Source of the DNA: a candidate division FCPU426 bacterium | GTDB lineage: Bacteria > Oederibacteriota > Muellerivitia > Muellerivitales > Muellerivitaceae | NCBI GenBank assembly: GCA_027452205.1 | Contig: DAIDGV010000027.1 | Span: forward strand, 6,471-70,470 | Direction of reading: 5' to 3' | Length of the DNA: 64,000 bases | Shown here: positions 3,765 through 53,640 of the stretch, piece by piece | Layout: each line of letters opens with the position of its first letter | Numbering within the stretch: the stretch's first letter is position 1 | The notes under the pieces: model-generated | The model's database searches: none | Told to the model about the DNA's origin: nothing | What the model saw: only the letters and a program-made list of their open reading frames with translations | Program-made: the position numbers and the translations under genes

Positions 3765-5428
<1,664 letters not shown>

Positions 5429-5430
<2 letters not shown>

Positions 5431-5534
5431 TTAAGAATTAAGAATTTTAAATTATGAATTATGGAAAGTTTCAATTTGAACTTCGAAATTGAAACTCACA
5501 ACAATTCTTAATTATTAATTCAAAAGTCTTAATT
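5429..5534. repeat. 7-nt-periodic AT-rich palindrome
   Basis: AATTAAG x2, AATTTTA, AATTATG x2; central 11-bp stem; inverted right arm. Confidence 0.75.
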
Positions 5535-5575
5535 GAGTGAAGCGAAGATCAAGTGCGCGAAAGGCGAGGTTTCAA

Positions 5576-6859
5576 ATGTCAAAAAGCATCTTAATCCAAG
5601 GCGGTCACGTGGTCGACCCGGCCAACCAAATTGACGGCCCGGCGGATGTGTTCATCGAGAATGGCAAGATCGCTAAAGTAGGCAAGGGCCTCAAGGTCAA
5701 GGCCGACCAGACCATCGACGCCAAGGGAAAGATCGTCACCCCGGGCTTGGTCGACATCCATGTTCACTTACGCGAACCGGGCTTCGAATATAAAGAAACC
5801 ATCGCTACCGGCACCCTGGCGGCGGTCGCCGGCGGGGTCACTTCGGTGGCCTGCATGCCCAACACCAACCCGCCCATCGACGACCAAGCCATCGTCCACT
5901 TCATCAAGAGCAAGGCTGAAAAAGAAGGCCACTGCCATGTCTTCCCGGTGGGTTGTATCTCCAAGCAACGGGCGGGTGAAGAAATGTCCGAAATGGGAGA
6001 ACTGAAAAAGGCCGGGGCGGTCGCCCTGTCCGACGACGGCGCGCCCATCATGAACGCTGAACTGATGCGCCGGGTCATGGAATACGCCAAGATGCACGAC
6101 CTGGTCGTGATCGACCACTGCGAAGATATGCACTTGTCGAACAACGGGGTCATGAACGAAGGGGAGGCCTCCACGGTGATGGGCCTTCGGGGTATCCCCG
6201 CCGCTTCCGAAACGGTCATGGTCGCCCGCAACATCGTGCTAGCCGAAATGACCGGGGCCAAGTTCCACGTCGCCCACATGTCCACCGCTGGGTCGGTGGA
6301 ACTGGTACGCCAAGCCAAGAAGAAGGGTCTCAATGTCACCTGCGAAACCGCGCCCCACTACTGGAGCCTGTCGGACAAGTCGATCAAGAACTACAACGCG
6401 AACTTCAAGATGAACCCGCCCCTTCGCAGTGACGAGGACGTGGCGGCCATCCGCAAAGCGCTTAAAGAAGGCATCGTGGACTGTATCGCCACCGACCACG
6501 CGCCGCACTCTTCCACTGAAAAACAGTGCGAGTTCGACGAAGCCGCCTTCGGCATCGTGGGTCTTGAGACCCTCTTCCCGGTCACTTACAGCCACCTGGT
6601 GGAGCCGGGGGTGGTGTCCCTCTCCCGCGCCATCGAATTACTGACCGTCGCGCCCTCGAAGATCGTGGGGCTGAACAAGGGAACCTTGAGCGAAGGGGCC
6701 GACGCGGACGTTGCCATCTTTGATATCACCAGCGAAAAGAAAGTGGATGTGAATGAATTCAAGACGAAGGGCCGCAACTCGCCCTTCAACGGATGGAACC
6801 TCAAAGGTTGGCCGGTGACGACCATTGTCAGCGGTGTCGTGAAATATCAAGCGGAGTAA
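5576..6859 (+). CDS. pyrC: dihydroorotase (type I)
   Basis: DIHVHLREPG, MPNTNP, KMNPPLR, ATDHAPH; start reassigned to ATG 5576 after GAGG. Confidence 0.96.
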   Translation: MSKSILIQGGHVVDPANQIDGPADVFIENGKIAKVGKGLKVKADQTIDAKGKIVTPGLVDIHVHLREPGFEYKETIATGTLAAVAGGVTSVACMPNTNPPIDDQAIVHFIKSKAEKEGHCHVFPVGCISKQRAGEEMSEMGELKKAGAVALSDDGAPIMNAELMRRVMEYAKMHDLVVIDHCEDMHLSNNGVMNEGEASTVMGLRGIPAASETVMVARNIVLAEMTGAKFHVAHMSTAGSVELVRQAKKKGLNVTCETAPHYWSLSDKSIKNYNANFKMNPPLRSDEDVAAIRKALKEGIVDCIATDHAPHSSTEKQCEFDEAAFGIVGLETLFPVTYSHLVEPGVVSLSRAIELLTVAPSKIVGLNKGTLSEGADADVAIFDITSEKKVDVNEFKTKGRNSPFNGWNLKGWPVTTIVSGVVKYQAE

Positions 6860-6862
6860 CGA

Positions 6863-8032
6863 ATGAAGCCAAGCAAGAGTCGTAAAGCGGTACTGGCCCT
6901 CGAGGACGGTACTTGGTTCGAAGGGCAGGCCTTTGGGGCGGATGGAAAAGTTTTCGGGGAAGTGGTCTTCAACACCTCCATGACGGGTTATCAGGAGATC
7001 CTCACTGACCCTTCTTACCGGGGTCAAATGGTGACCATGACCTACCCCATGATCGGTAATACAGGTGTGAACCATGTGGATGTGGAATCCCGCAAACCCT
7101 TCCTGTCGGGCTTTATCGTGAAGGAATACTGCAAACATCCCTCGAACTACCGCATGACCTCTACCTTGGGCGACTACCTCCGCAAGCACGGCATTGTGGC
7201 TATCGAAGGCATTGATACCCGCGCCTTGACCGCCCACCTGCGTACCCATGGGGCCAAGAAGGGCGTTATTTCCACGACCGAACTGAACCCGGCCAAGCTG
7301 GTCAAACAAGCCAAAGATAGCCAAGGCCTGGTGGGGCGCGACCTGGTCAAAGAAGTCACCTGCGACAAGCCTTACCATTGGACCGAACTGCCTTATAACT
7401 TGGACGCTGCGGATCATACGCCCAGCGACCAAATGAACCTGGGCCTGGATAAAGAAGCTAAAAAAATAAAGATCGCGGCCCTCGATTGCGGCATCAAATA
7501 CAACATCCTGCGCCGCTTGGTGGCGGAAGGCTTTGATGTGACGGTCTATCCGGCTACCACTCCGGCGGCGGAGATCCTCAATTCGGGCGTGAAGGGCGTG
7601 TTCCTCTCCAACGGCCCTGGCGACCCGGAAGGCGTGCCTTATGTGGCGGACACGGTCCGCGACCTCATTCACCGCAATATCCCCATCTTCGGTATCTGCC
7701 TAGGTCACCAAATTTTGGGTCTGGCCCTGGGCGGCAAGACCTACAAGATGAAGTTCGGCCACCGGGGCGGCAATCAGCCGGTGCTGAACCGCTTGAACAG
7801 CAAGATCGAGATCACCAGCCAGAACCACGGCTTCGCGGTGGACGAGGAAAGCCTGGATAAGAACCTGGTCACGGCGACCCATGTGAACCTGAGCGACAAC
7901 ACCAGCGAAGGTTTGATGATGAAGAACAAGCCGGTCTTCAGCGTGCAGTACCATCCGGAGTCGTCACCGGGACCGCATGATTCGCGGTATCTCTTTCAAC
8001 AATTCCGCGAATTGATTGAGCGGAATGGATAA
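6863..8032 (+). CDS. carA: carbamoyl-phosphate synthase small chain
   Basis: GEVVFNT, SNGPGDP, GICLGHQ, QYHPE. Confidence 0.97.
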   Translation: MKPSKSRKAVLALEDGTWFEGQAFGADGKVFGEVVFNTSMTGYQEILTDPSYRGQMVTMTYPMIGNTGVNHVDVESRKPFLSGFIVKEYCKHPSNYRMTSTLGDYLRKHGIVAIEGIDTRALTAHLRTHGAKKGVISTTELNPAKLVKQAKDSQGLVGRDLVKEVTCDKPYHWTELPYNLDAADHTPSDQMNLGLDKEAKKIKIAALDCGIKYNILRRLVAEGFDVTVYPATTPAAEILNSGVKGVFLSNGPGDPEGVPYVADTVRDLIHRNIPIFGICLGHQILGLALGGKTYKMKFGHRGGNQPVLNRLNSKIEITSQNHGFAVDEESLDKNLVTATHVNLSDNTSEGLMMKNKPVFSVQYHPESSPGPHDSRYLFQQFRELIERNG

Positions 8033-8034
8033 AA

Positions 8035-8068
8035 AGTTTGCCCTGAGGGAGCGAAGCTCATCGAAGGG
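8035..8068. repeat. REP-like hairpin
   Basis: CCCTGAG-GGAGC GAA GCTC-ATCGAAGGG directly after the carA stop. Confidence 0.5.
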
Positions 8069-8116
8069 TTGTTCCAACAGTTTAGGGAGTTAATTGAGAA
8101 GCAAAAGATTGTTTAA
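8069..8116 (+). pseudogene. recoded duplicate of carA C-terminal codons (LFQQFRELIEKQKIV*)
   Basis: 10 consecutive identical residues to carA 7991-8020, 7 of 10 codons differ synonymously. Confidence 0.85.
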
Positions 8117-8137
8117 GTTTGAGGAGATTTGATTTTA

Positions 8138-9061
8138 ATGAATGAGTATGTGCGACAAGTACTTCGAGAAAGAAAAGGTTTCATTGATTTTCTTTTGATT
8201 ATTTTTCCTTCTTCTGTGATTGCTAATGTGGTTGCTTCTATAGTTATTGAATGGCATTGGTCTTATTTAATTTTTTTTGTTTTATTTTTTTCCTTTATAG
8301 CTTTGCTTTTTGGATTCTACCGGAGTCTTAAGTGCAAAGTTTTTGAATATGTCATTGCTGAAGAACTTGTTTTAGATCAAACGTCGAAAACGATATCTTT
8401 AAAGCTTGATTTTGGACATTCAACGGTTCTTGCACTGATTAACGAGATTTATTCGGAAGAAATTTTAAAGAATTCGAGTCTCGTAAATAATCAAACTGAA
8501 GAGTTGGCATCTTATTGGAGTTTTTCTTTAGATGTTTTTGAATACTTGATTTTTGATGTAATTGATAAAGTAAGCACTGGCTGGGGAATGATTCAAACTT
8601 CAAAATATTTCTATTCGGGAAAAGGTTCTTTGGATGGAAAAAAGTATTCATCTGATTCATTGCCCGATGAATTGAAAAACAAAAATCTTTTACTTAAAAA
8701 ATTCATTAAAGAATTGTCGAAGGAAAATTCGAGATTGGCAGAAAAACCATTTTTTGTTCCGTTGAGTTCAAATATTCATTATTCGAGAACAGGTAGTACT
8801 AGGGATTCGAGAAGCATTATTGTTGAAAATGATTACGCGGTTTTTAAAATTGGATTGGAGATGGGAACGAGTGGCTACAAATCTTTGAAACAAAATTCAA
8901 AGATTTTATATTATGCGCCGCAAATTTCCTTTGAATTTGAGTCGAAACCATTTTTGGCACTGTCTAAAAACTATGAAAAATCTTTGGCTTGGTCTGAATT
9001 TTTTCTAAAAAGTTTAAAAGTCAAACTGACAAATTTTGCGAAGGGTGATTTAAATGCCTAA
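8138..9061 (+). CDS. AT-rich orphan membrane protein inserted between carA and carB
   Basis: two N-terminal TM helices, markedly low GC, GAGGAG SD, overlaps carB start. Confidence 0.75.
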
Positions 9062-12000
9062 ACGGACAGACATCAAAAAGATCATGGTCATCGGGGCAGG
9101 GCCCATCATCATTGGGCAGGCCTGCGAATTCGACTACTCAGGGACCCAGGGCTGTAAGGCTCTTAAAGAAGAGGGCTACGAAGTTATCCTCATCAACTCC
9201 AACCCCGCCACCATCATGACCGACCCGGAATTTGCCCATAAGACCTATGTCGAACCCATCAACCCGGATGTGGTCGCCAAGATCATCGAAAAAGAACGTC
9301 CGGATGCCTTGCTGCCCACCTTGGGCGGTCAAACGGCACTGAATACGGCTGTGGCCCTGGCCGAAAAGGGTGTTTTGAACCAATTTAATGTGGAACTCAT
9401 TGGCGCCAACCTGGCCGCTATTAAAAAGGCCGAAGATCGCCAGCTTTTCAAAGAAGCCATGCTGAAGATCGGTCTGGATCTGCCGAAGTCCCTTACGGTA
9501 AACACCCTCGAAGAGGGGATCGGTTTTGCCGAAGGCAATGGCTACCCGGTGATCATTCGCCCGGCCTTTACTTTGGGTGGCACCGGCGGCGGTATCGCTT
9601 ATAACCGCCAAGAATTCGAAGAGATCCTGTCCAAGGGCTTGGACCTGTCACCCATTCACCAATGCTTGGTTGAAGAGTCGGCCTTGGGTTGGAAAGAATA
9701 TGAAATGGAAGTGATGCGCGACCTGAAGGACAACGTGGTCATCATCTGCTCCATCGAGAATATGGACCCGATGGGCATTCACACCGGGGATTCGGTGACC
9801 GTGGCCCCGGCGCAAACGCTGACGGATAAGGAATATCAGCGCATGCGCGACGCCTCGATCGCTTGTATCCGTGAGATCGGTGTGGATACGGGTGGTTCGA
9901 ACATCCAATTCGGTGTGGACCCTAAGACAGGCCGGATGATCGTCATTGAAATGAACCCCCGAGTTTCCCGCTCTTCGGCTTTGGCTTCCAAGGACACCGG
10001 TTTTCCTATCGCGAAGATCGCGGCCAAGCTGGCCGTGGGTTACACCTTGGATGAGCTCTTCAACGACATTACTCGCTACACCAAGGCGGCCTTTGAGCCT
10101 TCGATCGACTACGTGGTCACGAAGATCCCTCGCTTCACCTTTGAAAAGTTCCCGGACGCGGAAGACATCCTGAATACCTCCATGAAGAGCGTGGGTGAGA
10201 CCATGTCCATCGGCCGCACCTTCAAGGAAAGCTACCAAAAGGCCATGCGGTCCATGGAAACGGGCATCATTGGCTATGGGGCCGATGGGCGCGAGTTCAA
10301 ACAAGGCCGCTGGATAAAGACCGGCGCCCGCAAGCCGGGGCGTATCCCGGGTGATGTGCTGAACGCTCAATTGGGCAAAACCACCTCGCAACGCCATTTC
10401 TTCTTACGCCAGGCCCTGTGGCAGGGATATGACGTGGAGAAAATCTATAAGATGACCGCGATCGATCCTTGGTTCTTGAATGAACTCAAAGAGATCGTCG
10501 ATATGGAAAAAGAACTGGAAAAGGCCACGTCCAAACGCGGCACCTTGAAAGCCAAGTTGCCGGTCGATCTGTTGCGCCGGGCCAAGGAGATGGGCTTCTC
10601 CGACGCTCAATTGGCTTTCTTGACCGGGGCCAAAGAACACATGGTTCGCAACTACCGCAAGATGAACAAGGTCATCCCGGTTTACAAAATGGTGGATACC
10701 TGCGCGGCCGAGTTCGAGGCTTTCACGCCTTACCTTTACTCCACCTACGAATTGGGCCGTTCCTCGCTGATGGGGAAGGACACCGAGTCCGCCCCGACGA
10801 AGAACAACAAGATCATGATCCTGGGCGGCGGGCCGAACCGCATTGGCCAGGGGATCGAGTTCGACTATTGCTGCGTGCACGGGGCTTTTGCCCTGCGGGC
10901 AGATGGTTATGAAGTCATCATGGTCAATAACAACCCCGAAACCGTCTCGACGGACTATGACACCTCGAACCGCCTCTACTTTGAGCCGCTCACCTATGAA
11001 GATGTGATGAACATCGTGGACCGCGAAAAGCCCAAAGGGGTCATCGTTCAATTCGGCGGACAAACGCCGCTGAAACTGGCGGTTTCCCTGAAAAAGGCCA
11101 AGGTGCCCATCATTGGGACCTCGCCCGAATCCATCGACGTGGCGGAAGACCGCAAGCTCTTCGGCGCCATGCTGAAGAAACTGAAGATCCGCCAGCCGGA
11201 CAACGGTATCGCCATGAACGTGAAGCAAGCCAAGCCGGTGGCCCGCAAAGTGGGTTACCCGGTGGTGGTGCGGCCCTCTTATGTGCTGGGCGGCCGGGCG
11301 ATGGAGATCGTCTATGACGAATCCTCGCTGGATGAATTCGTCCAAAAAGCGGCTGAGGCGGCCCCCGACAAACCCATTCTGATCGACCACTTTTTGGAAG
11401 ACGCTCTCGAAGTGGATGTGGACTGCGTTTGTGACGGCAAAGAAGTGCTGATCGCCGGCATCATGGAACATATCGAAGAAGCGGGTATCCACTCGGGTGA
11501 CTCGGCCTGCGTGATACCGCCCTTTACCCTGCGGGAAGACCAGATCGCCGCAATCCGTAAATACACGACCCAAATGGCCATGAGCCTGAAGGTGAAGGGT
11601 CTCATGAACGTTCAGTACGCCATCAAGAACGACATGGTCTATGTGCTGGAAGTGAACCCCCGCGCTTCGCGCACGGTGCCTTTTGTTTCCAAGGTCACCG
11701 GCACGCCCTGGGCCAAGGTGGCCGCCCGCATTATGTCAGGGAAGAGCATCCAACAACTGAAGGTGAAAGAAGTCTCTTTCCTCAAGCATATCGCGGTCAA
11801 AGAAGCGGTGTTCCCCTTCAACCGGTTCCCGGGCGTAGATACGGTCTTGGGACCTGAGATGAAGTCTACCGGTGAAGTGATGGGCATTGACCAAGACTTC
11901 GGCATGGCTTTCGCGAAAAGCCAGATGGCCGCCAACTCGGCCCTGCCCCTAAAAGGCACCGTGTTCGTTTCGGTCAAGAACAAGGACAAGCGCACGGCCA

Positions 12001-12350
12001 TCTTCATCGCCAAGCGCTTGATCGACATGGGTTTCAAGATCGTCGCCACCCAGGGCACAGCGCAAGCCCTGACCAGTAACGGGATGGAAGTAACGATCGT
12101 TCGTAAAGTGCATGAGGGCCGCCCGAACGTGGTGGATCTCATCAAGAACGGGGAAGTGCAGCTCATCATGAACACCCCCGCTGGTAAGGGGCCTCGCTCA
12201 GATGACTTCCAGATCCGCCGTACGGCAGTTGTTTATGGAGTGCCTTGTATCACGACGCTGTCGGCCTGCGCCGCGGCGGCCAATGGTATCGAGGCGATGA
12301 AAAAGCGGGACTTGAAGGTGAAGAGTTTGCAGGAGTATCATTCCATCTGA
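9054..12350 (+). CDS. carB: carbamoyl-phosphate synthase large chain
   Basis: [19 protein letters not shown], two ATP-grasp halves, MGS domain. Confidence 0.98.
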
Positions 12351-12448
12351 TCTTTTGGCGTTCCAGTGGATCAGTTCAACACCGATTTTTATGATCAGGA
12401 ATTTGTTTATTGAATTTAGCGTTCGAAATTAACCAAAGGAGAATTGTT

Positions 12449-14512
12449 TTGAGAAAAACACTGATGGTTTTGACGTCGATGGCTTTGCTTGGCTCCTCCA
12501 CAACGCTTTCCTTCGCCCTGCAAAATAAGCCGGTCGTTCTTAATGGCACCCATCCGAATTTGACCAAACAGAATTCTGGTAAGCAGGATTTGGGCAAGTC
12601 GAAAAATAATGCAAAGGGTAATTTGAAGACCAGCATGAAAACGACGGGGAAGACCGGTTTGGTCGATCCTTTAACCGGCAAACATATGTTGGTCAATGAC
12701 AAGACCGGTTTAGCGCGCACGGTGGATCCGAAGACCCACCAACCGGAGATCATCAATCCGACGACCGGCCATGTGATCCCCACGGACCCGAAGACGGGCC
12801 TGGTGATGACCTTGAATCCCTTGACCCACAAGATGGAAACGCTCGATCCGCATACCGGTGAGCCGGCGACGGTCAATCCCAAGACGGGTCTGATCACGAC
12901 GACCAATCCGAAGACGGGTAAACCAGAGACGATCGATCCGAAGACGGGACTGGGGACTATCGAAAATCCCATCACTCACAAGGTCGAGACGATCAATCCG
13001 GTGACGGGCAAGATCATTAAACCCAACGCGAAGACGGGTCTGATCACAGCAAAGGACCCGGCTACGGGTAATAAGATCTTGATCGATCCAAAGACCGGCA
13101 AGGAGCTGAAGGCCGACCCCAAAACGGGTCTTGTAACGACGACCAACCCGAAGACCGGCAAGGAAGAGACGATCGATCCCCAGACGGGTACGCCCGCCAA
13201 GTTCGATGCCAAGACGGGCCTGGTGACAACGACGAACGCGAAGGGGAAAACCGAATCGTTCGATCCGAAGACCGGCGAGAAAGCTGTTTACAGCAAGGAC
13301 ACTGGTTTGATCTTGGAGAACGACCCGAAAACGGGCAAGCCTGAGTTGTTCGATCCTAAGAGCAAGAACGGTTTACCTCTCCCGGTCGATCCGAAGACGG
13401 GTCTCGTGACGGTCAAGAACCCGAAAACGGGCAAGGAAGAGACCCTCGAACCGGAGAATGGTGAACCAGCGAAGTATGACCCGAAGACGGGGTTGGTCAC
13501 AACGACCGGTAAAGAAACTGAAGAAGTGTTGCCCGGAACAAAGCTAGTCAAAAAAACCACCGAGATCTTCACCGCGTCGGGCGAGAAAGTGACGGTCAAC
13601 CCGAAGACGGGTCTGGGGACTTACACCGATCCGAAGACGGGTGTTCCACAATTGCTTGATCCGAAGACCGGCAAATTGTTGGTGCCGGACCCGAAGACGG
13701 GCCTCGTGACGACGAAAGACCCCGAGACGGGCAAGACGGAAACGGTCTTCCCGGGAACGGGTTCTACCGCAACCTACGACCCGAAAACGGGCCTCGTGAC
13801 GGTGGATAATAGTAAGGAGTCTGGGAACATCATCAAGATGAAAAAAGAGACCTTCGACCCGAAGACCGGCCAACCGGCCAAGTTGAACAAGCAGACGGGT
13901 CTCATTCAAACGACCGATCCGAAGACAGGCAATCCGGTGCTGTTGAATCCCAAGAGCGGCGAACCCTTGATGGCAGATCCGAAGACGGGTCTGGTGACGG
14001 TGGAGAACCCGAAGACGCATGAGATGGAGTCGGTCTATCCGGGTACAGGAACCACGGGAACCTATGACCCGAAAACCGGCCTGGTGACGGTGACGGCAAC
14101 CGATAAAGCGGGGAAGGCCGGGTTGGCTGGGTTGGGCGCCGGCAAGGATCAAAAAGAAAGCTTTGATCCGAAGACCGGCGAGCCGGCAACCTACAACAAG
14201 AACACGGGCTTGATCAAAACGATCGACCCGAAGACGGGCGAGACGGTGCTGGAAGATCCGAAAAACGGCACGCCTATTCCGGTGGACCCCTACACGGGCC
14301 TCGTGACCACGAAGGACCCGCAGACGGGCAAGACGGAGACGATCTTTCCAGGAACGGGAGAGCCGGGAACCTTCAATGAGAAGACAGGCTACATCACGAC
14401 GACCAACCCGAAAACGGGTAAAACCGAAACGATCGACCCGGAAACGGGTAAACCGGTCAAGGGTAAGACTGGCATGACATCGGAAGATGATTGGGAAGCG
14501 CCCGTGAGCTGA
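12449..14512 (+). CDS. secreted (D/N)PKTG decapeptide-repeat protein
   Basis: AAGGAG SD before TTG 12449, signal peptide ending SFA, more than 50 repeats with degenerate codons. Confidence 0.85.
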   Translation: MRKTLMVLTSMALLGSSTTLSFALQNKPVVLNGTHPNLTKQNSGKQDLGKSKNNAKGNLKTSMKTTGKTGLVDPLTGKHMLVNDKTGLARTVDPKTHQPEIINPTTGHVIPTDPKTGLVMTLNPLTHKMETLDPHTGEPATVNPKTGLITTTNPKTGKPETIDPKTGLGTIENPITHKVETINPVTGKIIKPNAKTGLITAKDPATGNKILIDPKTGKELKADPKTGLVTTTNPKTGKEETIDPQTGTPAKFDAKTGLVTTTNAKGKTESFDPKTGEKAVYSKDTGLILENDPKTGKPELFDPKSKNGLPLPVDPKTGLVTVKNPKTGKEETLEPENGEPAKYDPKTGLVTTTGKETEEVLPGTKLVKKTTEIFTASGEKVTVNPKTGLGTYTDPKTGVPQLLDPKTGKLLVPDPKTGLVTTKDPETGKTETVFPGTGSTATYDPKTGLVTVDNSKESGNIIKMKKETFDPKTGQPAKLNKQTGLIQTTDPKTGNPVLLNPKSGEPLMADPKTGLVTVENPKTHEMESVYPGTGTTGTYDPKTGLVTVTATDKAGKAGLAGLGAGKDQKESFDPKTGEPATYNKNTGLIKTIDPKTGETVLEDPKNGTPIPVDPYTGLVTTKDPQTGKTETIFPGTGEPGTFNEKTGYITTTNPKTGKTETIDPETGKPVKGKTGMTSEDDWEAPVS

Positions 14513-49695: not shown

Positions 49696-50928
49696 ATGAC
49701 CCAAGGCCGCAAGAAACCCAGAGTTCTTTTAGGCGTGACCGGCAGTGTGGCCGCTTATAAAGCGGTCGATCTGATCCAACGATTAAAACCCTTCTCTGAA
49801 ATCAAAGTGGTGGCCACGGAGGCCGGTTCGAAACTGGTACCCCTGAAGGCCCTGGAAAAGGCCTCGGGCTCCAAGGTTTGGACCAGTCTTTTTAAAGGCG
49901 CTACCCCCATCGCGCCCGGAACCCCCAGCGGCAGCCATCCCTTAGCGGTCGTCCCCCATATCGAATACGCCAAATCCGCCGATCTGGTGCTGATCGCACC
50001 AGCCAGCGCGGACATCTTGGCCAAACTGGCTTTAGGTCTGGCCAATGACCTGTTATCGACCCTTTGTCTTTACGCCACTTGTCCGATCTGGGTGGCCCCG
50101 GCCATGAACGTCAAAATGTGGAACCACCCGGCGGTGAAACAGAACGCCGGTGTGCTTCGCTACCGGGGCGTTCGATTCCTGGGCCCGGAAAGCGGCCACT
50201 TGGCTTGCGGGGAAGTAGGGGATGGCCGTTTCGCGGAGCCCGCTGAGATCGCCCTACAAGTGCAAAGCTACTTCGAGAATTTCGACCGTTGGGCGGGCCG
50301 GAAGATACTGGTCACCGCGGGTCCGACGGTTGAACCCATCGACCCGGTGCGGGTCATCAGCAATCATTCCAGCGGCAAGATGGGTTATGCGTTGGCCCAA
50401 GCGGCGCTAAACCGGGGAGCGGAAGTGGTCCTCGTGACCGGACCTACCAGGATCATCCCGCCGGTGGGTGCAGAAGTGGTGGCGGTCAAGACCGCCGAGG
50501 AAATGCGCCAGGCGGTCAAAAAGGTCTCGGCCCATGTCGATCTTTTCATCATGGCGGCGGCGGTGGCGGATTACCGGGTCACCTCGGTAGCGAAATCCAA
50601 GATCAAAAAGACAGATAAAGGCTTAACACTGCAACTGACCCCCAATGCGGACATTCTGGGCGAGGTCCTGAAAAACCGTAAAAAAGATCAAAAGGTCATC
50701 GGTTTCGCCGCTGAGACGGACCACCTTGAAAAGAACGCTTCGGAAAAGTGGAAACGTAAACCCTGTGACCTGTTGGTGGCCAACTCGGTGGGTGGTCAGA
50801 ATAGCGCCTTTAACGGCGACCGGAATGAACTATTGGTCTTCAGTCAAAAACGCTCTAAACCGGTCTTGCTCAAGAAGGATTACAAAAGCCGGTTGGCTGA
50901 ACAGATCCTGGAAATGATCGATGAATAA
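49696..50928 (+). CDS. coaBC: phosphopantothenoylcysteine decarboxylase/ligase
   Basis: GVTGSVAAYK, PAMN, TAGPT.E.IDPVR, GFAAET. Confidence 0.96.
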   Translation: MTQGRKKPRVLLGVTGSVAAYKAVDLIQRLKPFSEIKVVATEAGSKLVPLKALEKASGSKVWTSLFKGATPIAPGTPSGSHPLAVVPHIEYAKSADLVLIAPASADILAKLALGLANDLLSTLCLYATCPIWVAPAMNVKMWNHPAVKQNAGVLRYRGVRFLGPESGHLACGEVGDGRFAEPAEIALQVQSYFENFDRWAGRKILVTAGPTVEPIDPVRVISNHSSGKMGYALAQAALNRGAEVVLVTGPTRIIPPVGAEVVAVKTAEEMRQAVKKVSAHVDLFIMAAAVADYRVTSVAKSKIKKTDKGLTLQLTPNADILGEVLKNRKKDQKVIGFAAETDHLEKNASEKWKRKPCDLLVANSVGGQNSAFNGDRNELLVFSQKRSKPVLLKKDYKSRLAEQILEMIDE

Positions 50929-52666
50929 GGTTCGGATGACGGCATACCCATTCCTGTTGTTCGTCTTGGCCTTTCTTTACTCCTCGCCCGTCCTTTCGGG
51001 TGTCCTTTCCCGTGAAGGTAAACCTCTTTTCGTGCCGGGTGAAGTGCTGGTGCGCTTCAATGATGACGCCCAAGAAACGGACAAGACAAAAGTCTTTTCC
51101 GCGGCGAAGACCCATGCCTCGGTAGACCTGGATGCTTTGTCGGTGCAGGGAGTTTATAAGATGCAATTGGCCGACGGGGTCGATGTGCTCAAAACCGTCG
51201 AGAGCCTCAAAGGCATGTCCGGTGTGCGCTATGCCCAACCGAACTACAAGTATTATGCCTTGGGCTGTACGGCCCCGAGCGATCCGGATTACACCAGCCC
51301 TTATAGCTGGCCGTTGGTGAAGATCCAGGCGCCCCAAGCCTGGACCCTGATCAATTGGCCTTCCTGTCCCCCGGGAAGCGGTGTGACGGTGGCGGTGCTG
51401 GATACGGGGATTGACCGCACGAACCCGGACCTTTCAGGGGTCCCTAATATCGGCTACAACGCTATTGGGGCTGTTGGTGAGGAGGCGGTTAGTTGCACCA
51501 CTTGTGTTGGCTGCAGCGCTTATTACACTACGCCTTATTCCAATACGACGGATGATTATGGGCACGGCACCTGGGTGTCGGGCATCATCGCGGCGGCTTG
51601 GAACAATGGCGCTGGTTTGGCGGGTTTGGCGGGCGGTGCGGTGATCATGCCGGTCAAAGTTTTGGATTGTTCGGGCAGCGGCTCCAGTAATTCCATCTCA
51701 TCGGGCATCAATTACGCGATCAACCACGGTGCCAAGGTGTTGAGCATGTCCTTGGGCGGTCCCCAGGATACTTTCGAACAAGAAGCCATTCAGGGAGCTT
51801 TGAATGCGGGTTGTGTGGTCGTGGCCGCGTCAGGGAATGATTACGCGAACACGCTTGAGTATCCGGCAGGATATTCGGGAGTGATCGCGGTGGGCGCCAG
51901 CGATGAGAATGATAATGTGGCTAGCTATTCCGATGGCGGGACGGGGTTGGACGGTAAAGTCCTAGACTTGGTCGCGCCAGGCGGGGCTACAGCACCGGAT
52001 ACTACCCAAAGCTTCAATACCGCGGCGGCTTATACCCTTTTCAGTGACTTTGTCGATCCTTTGCCTGCTGGCGCTGTTAATGACGGCGGGTTTGATTATG
52101 ATCCAGCCGATCGACACTATGGTTTGGCAGCTGGTACATCGGGGGCCACTCCTTATGTTTCCGCGGCGGCGGCCTTGGTCCTTTCCTTGAACCCGACCTG
52201 GAGCAACACCCAGGTGGCCCAACAACTGATCAATAACACCGATAGCTTGAACGGAAACACAGGTTGGGACGTCAGGTCCGGTTATGGAAGATTGAATGTT
52301 TATAAGGCACTGTCCAGTTCTTTGGGGTCGGGCCAGGTGACGACCTTTACGAAGACCTTCAATAGCCCTAATCCCTTCTATGCGGACTTACAGCCCTATA
52401 CCCACATTACGCTAGTTATGAGCCAAGCCCAATCGGTCCAGCTGTCCATTTATGACACGGCGGGGGAAACGGTTTTGAACCGCACCTACGCTTCGGGCCA
52501 GTTGAACAATGACCCTTCCACCCCGCAGTTCAAGTCCTTCTATATCGCCTGGGATGGCAAGAATGGCGCGGGCCAACCGGTAAAGACGGGTGTCTATTTT
52601 TACACGGTCAACATTGCCGGACAGATATCCCATAACAAGATCGTTGTGATCCGGGGCCCCCAATGA
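50921..52666 (+). CDS. S8 subtilase with C-terminal FlgD-Ig/T9SS-like sorting domain
   Basis: VLDTG, HGT, ASGN, GTS; SPNPF...IYD..G...WDGKN..G..V.TGVYF. Confidence 0.88.
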   Translation: MNKVRMTAYPFLLFVLAFLYSSPVLSGVLSREGKPLFVPGEVLVRFNDDAQETDKTKVFSAAKTHASVDLDALSVQGVYKMQLADGVDVLKTVESLKGMSGVRYAQPNYKYYALGCTAPSDPDYTSPYSWPLVKIQAPQAWTLINWPSCPPGSGVTVAVLDTGIDRTNPDLSGVPNIGYNAIGAVGEEAVSCTTCVGCSAYYTTPYSNTTDDYGHGTWVSGIIAAAWNNGAGLAGLAGGAVIMPVKVLDCSGSGSSNSISSGINYAINHGAKVLSMSLGGPQDTFEQEAIQGALNAGCVVVAASGNDYANTLEYPAGYSGVIAVGASDENDNVASYSDGGTGLDGKVLDLVAPGGATAPDTTQSFNTAAAYTLFSDFVDPLPAGAVNDGGFDYDPADRHYGLAAGTSGATPYVSAAAALVLSLNPTWSNTQVAQQLINNTDSLNGNTGWDVRSGYGRLNVYKALSSSLGSGQVTTFTKTFNSPNPFYADLQPYTHITLVMSQAQSVQLSIYDTAGETVLNRTYASGQLNNDPSTPQFKSFYIAWDGKNGAGQPVKTGVYFYTVNIAGQISHNKIVVIRGPQ

Positions 52667-53640
52667 GGTGGACGCGTTCAATAGGTCTGCTGATGCTCCT
52701 CCTGTTCTGGACCCTGCCGGTGTGGGCCGATCAACAAGGGGGTCAGAGACCGGCGGCTTACTTGGACATGGGCGTGGGCGGAATGCAGAACGCCATGGGC
52801 GGCACGGGGGTGGCGGTCCGGAACGATGTAGCCGATGGTTACTGGAACCCGGCTGGCTTGACGGCCTTGCGGGGTTTTCAAGTGGAAGACCAATACACCC
52901 TTCTTTCCCTGAATCAGGAATTGAACTATTTGGGATTAGCCAACAACTTCCGGGATAAATTCTTTTACGGTCTTTCCTGGATCTATTACAGCGCGGGGAA
53001 CGATCTGGAAGCCCGTACGGGACCCTCTTTGAACCCGGACAGCATTTTTTCCGACCTGGAAATGACCTTCATTGTTTCTTTGGCCATTCGCATCGACCCC
53101 CGGTGGGCACTGGGTCTGAATTTAAAGATATTGACCCAGAACCTAGGTTCCTTTTCATCCGGTGTCGGTTTTGGGGAAGACTTTGGTTTGCAATATCGAC
53201 TGACCAAAGACACCACCTTGGGATTGATGATCGAGGATATCTACACAAGCCTGACTTATAGTTCGTCCACGTCCTCCAGTTCCACGGATCCAGCCCAGAT
53301 CCGTCCGACGACTTTCAAGGTTGGCGTGGCTGACCATGAGGAACAATGGAACTTGAAAGGAACGGCTGACCTAGCCTGGAGCCAGGATCTGGGCCTGGAA
53401 CCGCGTCTGGGTGTTGAATGGCGCCCCTTGGATGGTTTGGCGTTGCGGGGCGGTTTTTGGGCAGAGAATTTGACCGCGGGAGCTGGAGGCGGATCGCCTT
53501 TGGTCTATTTGACGACCGGGGTCGCTCTTTTACTCCCGGTCCAGGGTAATTTGCTAGAATTCGACTATTCCATCATCCCGGACCGCATCGACGCGGGTGC
53601 CATCATCAACCAGATCGCTATCACCGGAAAGTTCCTCTAA
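52663..53640 (+). CDS. PorV/FadL-like outer-membrane beta-barrel
   Basis: signal peptide, AMGG..VA...D....YWNPAGL, alternating beta strands. Confidence 0.75.
   Translation: MRWTRSIGLLMLLLFWTLPVWADQQGGQRPAAYLDMGVGGMQNAMGGTGVAVRNDVADGYWNPAGLTALRGFQVEDQYTLLSLNQELNYLGLANNFRDKFFYGLSWIYYSAGNDLEARTGPSLNPDSIFSDLEMTFIVSLAIRIDPRWALGLNLKILTQNLGSFSSGVGFGEDFGLQYRLTKDTTLGLMIEDIYTSLTYSSSTSSSSTDPAQIRPTTFKVGVADHEEQWNLKGTADLAWSQDLGLEPRLGVEWRPLDGLALRGGFWAENLTAGAGGGSPLVYLTTGVALLLPVQGNLLEFDYSIIPDRIDAGAIINQIAITGKFL

Follow-up and report, generated by a model that had tools for sequence, protein, structure and literature searches.

At its 3' end, the carA gene of a candidate division FCPU426 bacterium is followed by a second, synonymously re-spelled copy of its own last codons, and this recoded duplication of the carA end is real. 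The stretch of DNA analysed here, called the window, comprises 64,000 nt. The reading best fitting the data is that a tiny gene-less cassette, belonging to a family-specific hairpin type designated E below and bringing along a replacement gene end, probably entered the last carA codons and was inserted with long target duplication. The displaced carA end would be the lineage's own one, and the alleles of relatives, the occurrence of E at other targets and several competing explanations are considered in the following.

The carA gene, encoding the small chain of carbamoyl-phosphate synthase, is located at 6863..8032 on the forward strand and is intact (389 aa, with matches to PF00988 at 1.6e-55 and to the GATase family PF00117 at 7.2e-53); a match to it is present in 41 of 41 relatives. 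It is preceded by a dihydroorotase-like gene at 5537-6859, ahead of which an AT-rich stretch with a GC content of 0.32 is found at 5400-5599. The translated carA end including the stop codon, tail 1 (7991..8032, forward strand), shows a spelling here referred to as R-type, with a resident-type patch at 8011-8022. Tail 2 (8069..8116, forward strand, with a start possibly at 8060) would be the displaced resident carA end, an untranslated relic with a stop codon of its own. From informative sites and the offset between the tails, an inserted patch of 78 nt is predicted at 7985..8062 (forward strand), consisting of a replacement carA end and a truncated hairpin module. Its boundaries are uncertain by 3 nt, with TCG common to both edges, which share nothing beyond this trinucleotide. 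The insert is flanked by two copies of the carA 3' end, the upstream one being the working copy, and the target duplication amounts to about 48 nt.

The offset of tail 2 from tail 1 is exactly 78 nt, which keeps the frame, an agreement with a chance of 1 in 3. All of the 10 compared residues are the same, while 9 of 30 nt differ (21/30 identical), distributed over seven codons and all synonymous, which bears out the claim of the first-pass annotation that a recoded duplicate of the carA C-terminus lies 78 nt downstream in frame. When nine random substitutions were simulated 200,000 times, the peptide was kept in none of the runs. Alignment of tail 2 with the carA end resulted in a score of 51, the best of 100 spacer shuffles reaching 35. 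A DNA repeat finder left tails 1 and 2 unpaired, consistent with re-spelling. The 36-nt spacer between the tails is open in frame, an ORF search inside the 78-nt patch returned none, and in a promoter and terminator scan of 7800-9200 the junction shows nothing above shuffle expectation. A diversity-generating retroelement layout for the tail copy was discarded, as the differences are synonymous and spread over all four bases.

For assigning the two tails, the carA-carB junction was compared among 27 members of the window's family and a single genome of the sister family, 28 genomes altogether, with spacers ranging from 0 to 1727 nt. At the codon level, the working carA tails fall into two spellings, the first being used by the congeners G001 and G002, by G016 and by most others, the second by G003, G044 and G045 as well as by one displaced copy in G007. 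The first spelling is that of tail 2 and the second that of tail 1, in line with the earlier suggestion that both tails were once coding carA ends. The best DNA matches of tail 2 are working carA ends, namely those of G016 (87.5% of 32 nt), G006 and G023 (82%) and G014 (81%), and the match to the working end of G002 (73% of 74 nt) extends beyond the stop codon. Tail 2 runs on into an AT-rich gene and then carB, colinear with the arrangement in relatives, and G001, G002 and G016 possess a single carA tail, representing the empty site. From its agreement with the working ends of near relatives and its colinearity with their spacer, tail 2 is considered resident and probably represents the lineage's own carA end, now stranded. 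This supports the proposal that DNA entering the carA 3' end supplied a new terminus and stranded the other, with tail 2 as the stranded one. In the public run X1, a contig of a relative with about 90% identity was found that has the resident spelling at 7990-7996 and a carA-carB gap of 302 nt; only two public runs contained 5-6% of the sampled words, and the contigs recruited from them at 80% likeness stem from relatives only, none of them spans 8039-8251, and they constitute no test of the assembly.

The extent of the incoming DNA can be estimated from informative sites, defined as positions at which most of G001, G002 and G016 have one base and most of G003, G044 and G045 another. Ahead of 7985, 12 of these sites are resident-type, two other-type and three neither. 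Between 7985 and 8010, all seven are of the other type and none is resident-type, followed by three resident-type sites at 8011-8022. Judging from this pattern, tail 1 is a mosaic. Moreover, both tails of the window have residues absent from the congeners (Q at position 3 and L at position 8), and simple import does not predict that these are shared. Among the genomes with the second spelling, G003 and G044 are 0.92 identical in the tail window and 0.63-0.77 in carA upstream of it. From the informative sites, we infer that about 78 nt (7985-8062) came in and nothing more.

The part of the patch behind the carA stop codon had previously been taken as a REP-like hairpin separating the tails. This holds only in part. 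On its own, the spacer forms no stable hairpin (-19.9 versus -18.7 kcal/mol for shuffled sequences, z -0.44, 67 of 200 shuffles being as good), but it corresponds to a conserved hairpin repeat truncated to its 3' half. A 9-base word of the spacer led to four near-identical hairpin repeats in the window's genome (G000), and the spacer aligns to the 3' half of E in 4/4 cassettes of this genome (p values of 0, 0.001, 0 and 0.011 from 1000 shuffles), a post hoc test in which the likeness had been spotted before testing. Aligned to E of the same genome, the carA copy is a 21-nt half only, located at 8037..8057 on the forward strand. Compared with one full E copy, the spacer has mismatches at 6 of 24 positions, and the reversed-pattern control gives one such match genome-wide, so that about one match with six mismatches is to be expected in the genome. 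Decayed carA or carB sequence was ruled out as source of the spacer (alignment p of 0.54 for the genome's own carA and 0.85 for the carB head). By alignment, the carA spacer is a truncated member of the family-specific E cassette type.

E itself is a two-hairpin module, and full E cassettes have a length of 100-180 nt. The exact E pattern was found in 20/31 family genomes, in 0/68 other genomes of the phylum and without any reversed-pattern match, at 1 to 17 copies per genome and with five full copies in G000. In the E stem, one covarying pair is seen among 33 copies (21 C-G, 11 T-A and one T-G, thus Watson-Crick in 32/33), and in a second, variable hairpin just before E, pairing is kept via double changes at 5/5 pairs. 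An Rfam 15 covariance search gave 0 matches at E <= 1 within 7500-9500 of the window. At four full-cassette loci, the same database returned four tRNAs above gathering score and no match to E, while a plastid-UTR match on a cassette locus, far below its gathering score (28 bits versus 65.7, E 0.024), lies on a tRNA. On contig C10 of G044 (205678-209093, locus L079), three hairpin copies with identical flanks are spaced 1.4-2 kb apart; the sequence following them is without duplicate, which may indicate a different use of the same hairpin.

Across the family, E is linked to displaced 3' ends. In 17/33 distinct copies, the 40 nt directly behind E are found a second time 42-147 nt ahead of it (p <= 0.005, 200 shuffles), while 0/33 pass in the reversed control for a duplicate upstream of E; in the other 16/33 E copies, a duplicate significant at this threshold is absent. 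The duplicated pieces are tRNA 3' ends, the rplL terminator (in G000, G003 and G004) and the end of an lpdA-like gene. In the four E arrays checked for it, a working tRNA is present upstream, and the displaced tRNA ends keep the T-loop bases and then regularly change just after them. An array of this layout lies on contig C24 of G000 (180940-181400, locus L084, about 1315-1760), where two units of about 180 nt are arranged in tandem behind a tRNA with GTT anticodon, as read from its letters. Each unit comprises a hairpin resembling a terminator, then the two-hairpin module and finally a displaced tRNA 3' end; similar arrays are found in G002 and G041.

At the lpdA-like gene, one junction is common to G000, G008, G013 and G001, the latter with a variant hairpin missed by the exact pattern, and in all four it reads as working end, cassette and displaced end. 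At the remaining 26 of 30 family lpdA-like loci, including that of the congener G002, the exact E pattern is not found. The first codons of the displaced end in G000 are like the working end of the empty congener, pointing to the same direction as at carA. The displaced copy is in frame with a stop codon in between, the one in G001 is frameshifted, and in G013 the real and displaced ends have rare residues in common while nine codons differ.

Displaced carA tails are also not restricted to the window. Among the 20 genomes with a carA-carB spacer of at least 60 nt, they beat all 100 shuffles in seven (G000, G003, G004, G007 with two copies, G011, G044 and G045), G020 being borderline and a remnant in G021 being judged by eye. 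In the 8 pairs of real and displaced carA ends, 61 codons are changed synonymously and 23 non-synonymously; four of the pairs differ by synonymous changes almost exclusively (34 to 3), the remaining ones being partly decayed, and in the displaced tail of G011, 8/19 codons are non-synonymous. An assembly artefact, with the carA ends of two strains joined one behind the other during reconstruction of this genome from a metagenome, would be in keeping with the 28 contigs of the genome and with the G004 assembly, which breaks at its duplicated carA end. It is nevertheless very improbable, as the displaced carA tails of the seven genomes come from independent assemblies, E together with a displaced end was found in 17/33 copies from 20 genomes, and the joint at carA carries non-carA sequence matching E.

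A full E was found at none of the other family carA loci (0/29 locus entries scanned, window excluded). The other displaced carA tails adjoin other inserts, that is, small genes, a toxin-antitoxin pair or other palindromes, and hence several kinds of events appear to have taken place at the carA slot. According to names read from translations, the inserts encode small membrane proteins, a DUF2283-like protein and a nucleotidyltransferase/HEPN pair. In G007, the carA-carB spacer of 1.7 kb (locus L046, 300-2062) contains two displaced carA ends, both of them interrupted by a palindromic repeat of 60 nt, and cassettes read as DUF2283-like, nucleotidyltransferase plus HEPN and zinc-ribbon membrane protein. 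The spacer of G013 has a weak carB-head-like stretch (locus L048, 366-422, score of 33 versus a shuffle maximum of 30). In G044 (locus L053, 680-787), an open frame of 35 codons that uses the start of carB itself is found between two small zinc-ribbon membrane-protein genes, in which the first 17 carB codons are fused to the last 20 carA codons (scores of 83 and 107 versus shuffle maxima of 36). This fusion of carB head and carA tail is an illegitimate joint.

This clean joint in the same slot is what would be expected from the main rival of the cassette reading, a one-off patch brought about without any mobile element by homology-facilitated illegitimate recombination with DNA from a related lineage. 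Here, homology on one side and an illegitimate joint on the other would have placed the carA end of the donor, together with a remnant of its 3' flank, in front of the resident end, with the hairpin merely as a favoured point of breaking and joining. The unrelated kinds of slot inserts, a recombinase gene missing nearby and target genes without obvious common site are likewise compatible with it. On the other hand, the conserved E abuts a displaced copy at many unrelated targets in many genomes (the 17/33 copies mentioned above), and its second hairpin shows compensatory change. With the same module at many targets and pairing maintained in this way, chance joints are hard to credit, and a one-off patch is considered rather unlikely.

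Displaced gene ends were searched genome-wide by comparing the last 25 residues of 4787 ORFs with the following 2.5 kb translated in three frames. The comparison yielded 108 matches scoring >= 45, versus 29 for reversed queries, many of them being tandem paralogues or low-complexity sequence; after filtering, 37 matches in open frames of < 100 codons were left. Among the clear cases, a comM/yifB-like gene on the minus strand of contig C10 of G000 (plus coordinates of about 116600-118316, L094) has a displaced end 86 nt downstream, out of frame and with a perfect 23-nt palindrome at the joint. The pair shares 39 nt with one difference, behind which the final three codons are spelled entirely differently for identical residues. 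In the case of an FtsW/RodA-like gene (contig C21:68109-70400 of G000, L095), the last 42 nt recur exactly 1.1 kb downstream, and the two repeats bracket a 370-aa acyltransferase-like membrane-protein gene with a GC content of 0.43. ThiE-like, methyltransferase-like, ParB-like and nitroreductase-like genes show displaced ends with inserts of about 1-1.3 kb. Downstream of a 191-aa gene on the minus strand of contig C12 of G000 (plus coordinates of about 50500-52903), two displaced ends bracket first a LysM-like gene and, next to it, a pair of ribbon-helix-helix and PIN genes, as read from translations. No obvious site is common to these target genes. The first-pass annotation had proposed looking for recoded tails elsewhere, and re-spelled tails indeed exist at other genes and in the carA slots of relatives.

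The ends at these other genes also bear on the possibility that the resident carA end was duplicated locally in tandem, both copies remaining under protein-level constraint, for example by read-through of the TAA stop codon. Such an origin would account for the lineage-specific residues common to both tails, for the spacer without in-frame stop and for the rare residues that the lpdA-like ends of G013 have in common though 9 codons differ. However, duplicated copies start identical, and nine synonymous-only changes would then need long selection on an untranslated copy. In addition, each tail spelling corresponds to one of two allele types already present in the family, the lpdA-like spacer contains a stop codon in frame, the comM-like copy lies in another frame than its gene, and other displaced tails decay, as in G011 (8/19 codons non-synonymous) and at the frameshifted lpdA-like copy of G001. 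A tandem duplication is thus quite improbable. The synonymous-only differences would rather go back to the separate history of the copies, each having served as a functional carA end in a lineage of its own until the two were juxtaposed.

Behind carA, the GC content drops from about 0.56 in the surroundings to 0.28-0.35 between 8040 and 9060. An AT-rich orphan gene is located there (8138..9061, forward strand, 307 aa from ATG, with two N-terminal helices), the stop codon of which overlaps the start of carB, encoding the large chain (9054..12350, forward strand, intact according to ORF and Pfam matches). Further downstream, at 12410-14512, the window has a 700-aa ORF without Pfam family, the first 200 nt of which are AT-rich (GC 0.40-0.45). 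A single homologue of the orphan was found in the family, in the same carA-carB slot of G021 at 39% identity and with a stop codon likewise overlapping the carB start, and genome and metagenome scans detected the G021-type locus only. In a profile search among 1.84 billion representatives, the orphan family comprised five proteins, and a word-based search for relatives found none besides the orphan protein. It has 0 Pfam and 0 NCBIfam matches, and its structural model (pLDDT 70) gave no fold match at E <= 0.001, the best Foldseek E value being 0.018. The weak matches of the model to helix-grip folds (START/PYL, probability of 0.75-0.84) may serve as a lead only, and the scores of <= 0.83 from an Atlas search with the orphan were taken as uninformative.

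Between the resident-type tail and carB, G002 and G016 have a small AT-rich gene for a zinc-ribbon membrane protein, and a small AT-rich gene of this type also lies behind the displaced carA tail in G003, G044 and G011. In line with the gene present in the slot of G002 and G016 and the homologue in the same slot of G021, the orphan is, as far as gene order tells, a resident of the carA-carB slot and not incoming DNA. The earlier idea that the tail ending in KQKIV came in together with the downstream orphan is therefore not supported; both correspond to the resident arrangement as seen in G002, G016 and G021.

This position of the orphan also speaks against homing, by which a nearby nuclease, the orphan, would cut empty carA ends, repair would copy the insert and re-spelling would block re-cutting. 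What favours homing is its layout only, as re-spelled C-terminal duplications beside endonuclease ORFs are described for fungal mitochondria (PMC6279837). The orphan is found downstream of the stranded resident tail, outside the patch, its weak best matches are ligand-binding folds and not nucleases, it is kept in the G021 slot, and the E cassettes at tRNAs and at the lpdA-like gene do not possess any ORF. Neither does the suggestion find support that recoding protects the filled site from re-cutting, since the patch is gene-less and the re-spelling corresponds to existing alleles. Altogether, homing is extremely improbable.

The favoured insertion of an E cassette at carA can be outlined as follows. 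The left part of the cassette would be the carA-end spelling of another lineage including the stop codon, and carA would stay whole by virtue of this end brought along. The right part would be the two-hairpin module E, at carA cut to its 3' half, and the resident carA end would have been pushed 78 nt downstream, thereby losing translation. More generally, E cassettes may arise by insertion duplicating 26 to about 85 nt of the target. Cassettes at a given site might then move between lineages by recombination via flanking homology, mixing donor and resident copies. The first insertion could be catalyzed by an enzyme acting in trans or could result from host recombination at the hairpin. As for enzyme candidates, no tyrosine recombinase was found near the examined cassettes. 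The eight PF00589 matches in the genome are on contigs C3, C19 and C23, and not on C27, C24 and C25, which carry the cassettes examined; no placed cassette is on C19 or C23, and the nearest match on C3 is about 87 kb away from the E copy at C3:232129-232156. Y1_Tnp is present in 16/20 E-positive and 6/11 E-negative genomes, a comparison in which many genomes are incomplete and the exact pattern misses the variant E of G001, and no clear link between E presence and a Y1 transposase as its partner is seen.

Tentatively, and with the balance still tilting against it, E cassettes may represent a class of non-autonomous mobile DNA that has not been described before, a structured module of about 100 nt combined with a site-matched spare 3' end, the hairpins of which would be recognised by a trans-acting enzyme. 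If this is true, E cassettes would sit harmlessly in the ends of essential genes, tRNAs and terminators by carrying such a spare end, stack in arrays and move between lineages. Should cassettes routinely overwrite gene ends, synonymous 3'-end recoding would mark horizontal exchange in core genes such as carA that is invisible to standard annotation and core-genome trees, and the stranded tails would be a record of former alleles and insertion order. Slots like the one between carA and carB would then gather accessory genes, for example, toxin-antitoxin pairs and small membrane proteins, without any recognisable integrase. As one module can be traced over 20 genomes and several target types, the mechanism is testable.

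In a limited open-access literature search, no description of hairpin cassettes that lack genes and carry spare gene ends was encountered, which does not imply absence from print. In transformable bacteria, homology-facilitated illegitimate recombination can add foreign DNA beside resident sequence by means of one homologous anchor and one illegitimate joint. The joint in G044 resembles this process, whereas a conserved structured module at the joint is not predicted by it. With REP/REPIN sequences and their Y1-type RAYT proteins, E shares short conserved palindromes in intergenic position just after genes, and Y1 transposase genes exist in the window's genome. In contrast to REP/REPIN, however, E is low-copy, with its five full copies in G000, tied to long target duplications and without clear Y1 link. 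The C-terminal duplications of fungal mitochondria are similar in having a partial C-terminal copy downstream of the working gene and adjoining inserted DNA, but the inserts encode LAGLIDADG or GIY-YIG enzymes (PMC6279837), while the carA patch is without such an ORF.

Insertion with long target duplication, as described by the Kobayashi group (Furuta et al., 2010, PMC2853133), is closer in several respects. There, inserts without mobility gene are flanked by long variable direct repeats of > 30 bp, some of them overlapping the 3' end of a gene, and the empty sites of relatives align with one copy. Likewise, the carA target repeat exceeds 30 bp, no mobility gene is present and relatives have the empty site. 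The inserts described there (PMC2853133) are restriction-modification genes instead of a hairpin module, and the repeats given in Table 2 (PMC2853133) are near-identical (43-47 of 46-47 positions, for example, 44/46), compared to 21/30 for the carA tails.

The E cassette resembles integrative elements restoring the 3' end of the tRNA or protein gene they target, minus the integrase defining them. Closest is the E. coli prophage e14 at icd, with icdC as 3'-end pseudogene. Also in this system, the working gene runs into the insert, which supplies the last codons, and the former end is left as a fragment beyond the insert. The two ends differ mostly at synonymous sites, the icd changes on e14 excision being synonymous apart from two D-to-E replacements (PMC13626634). 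The prophage e14 has about 15 kb and its own integrase, whereas the carA insert has 78 nt, is gene-less and lacks an integrase nearby. The E cassettes differ from e14 and icd, moreover, in that one E module serves many different targets.
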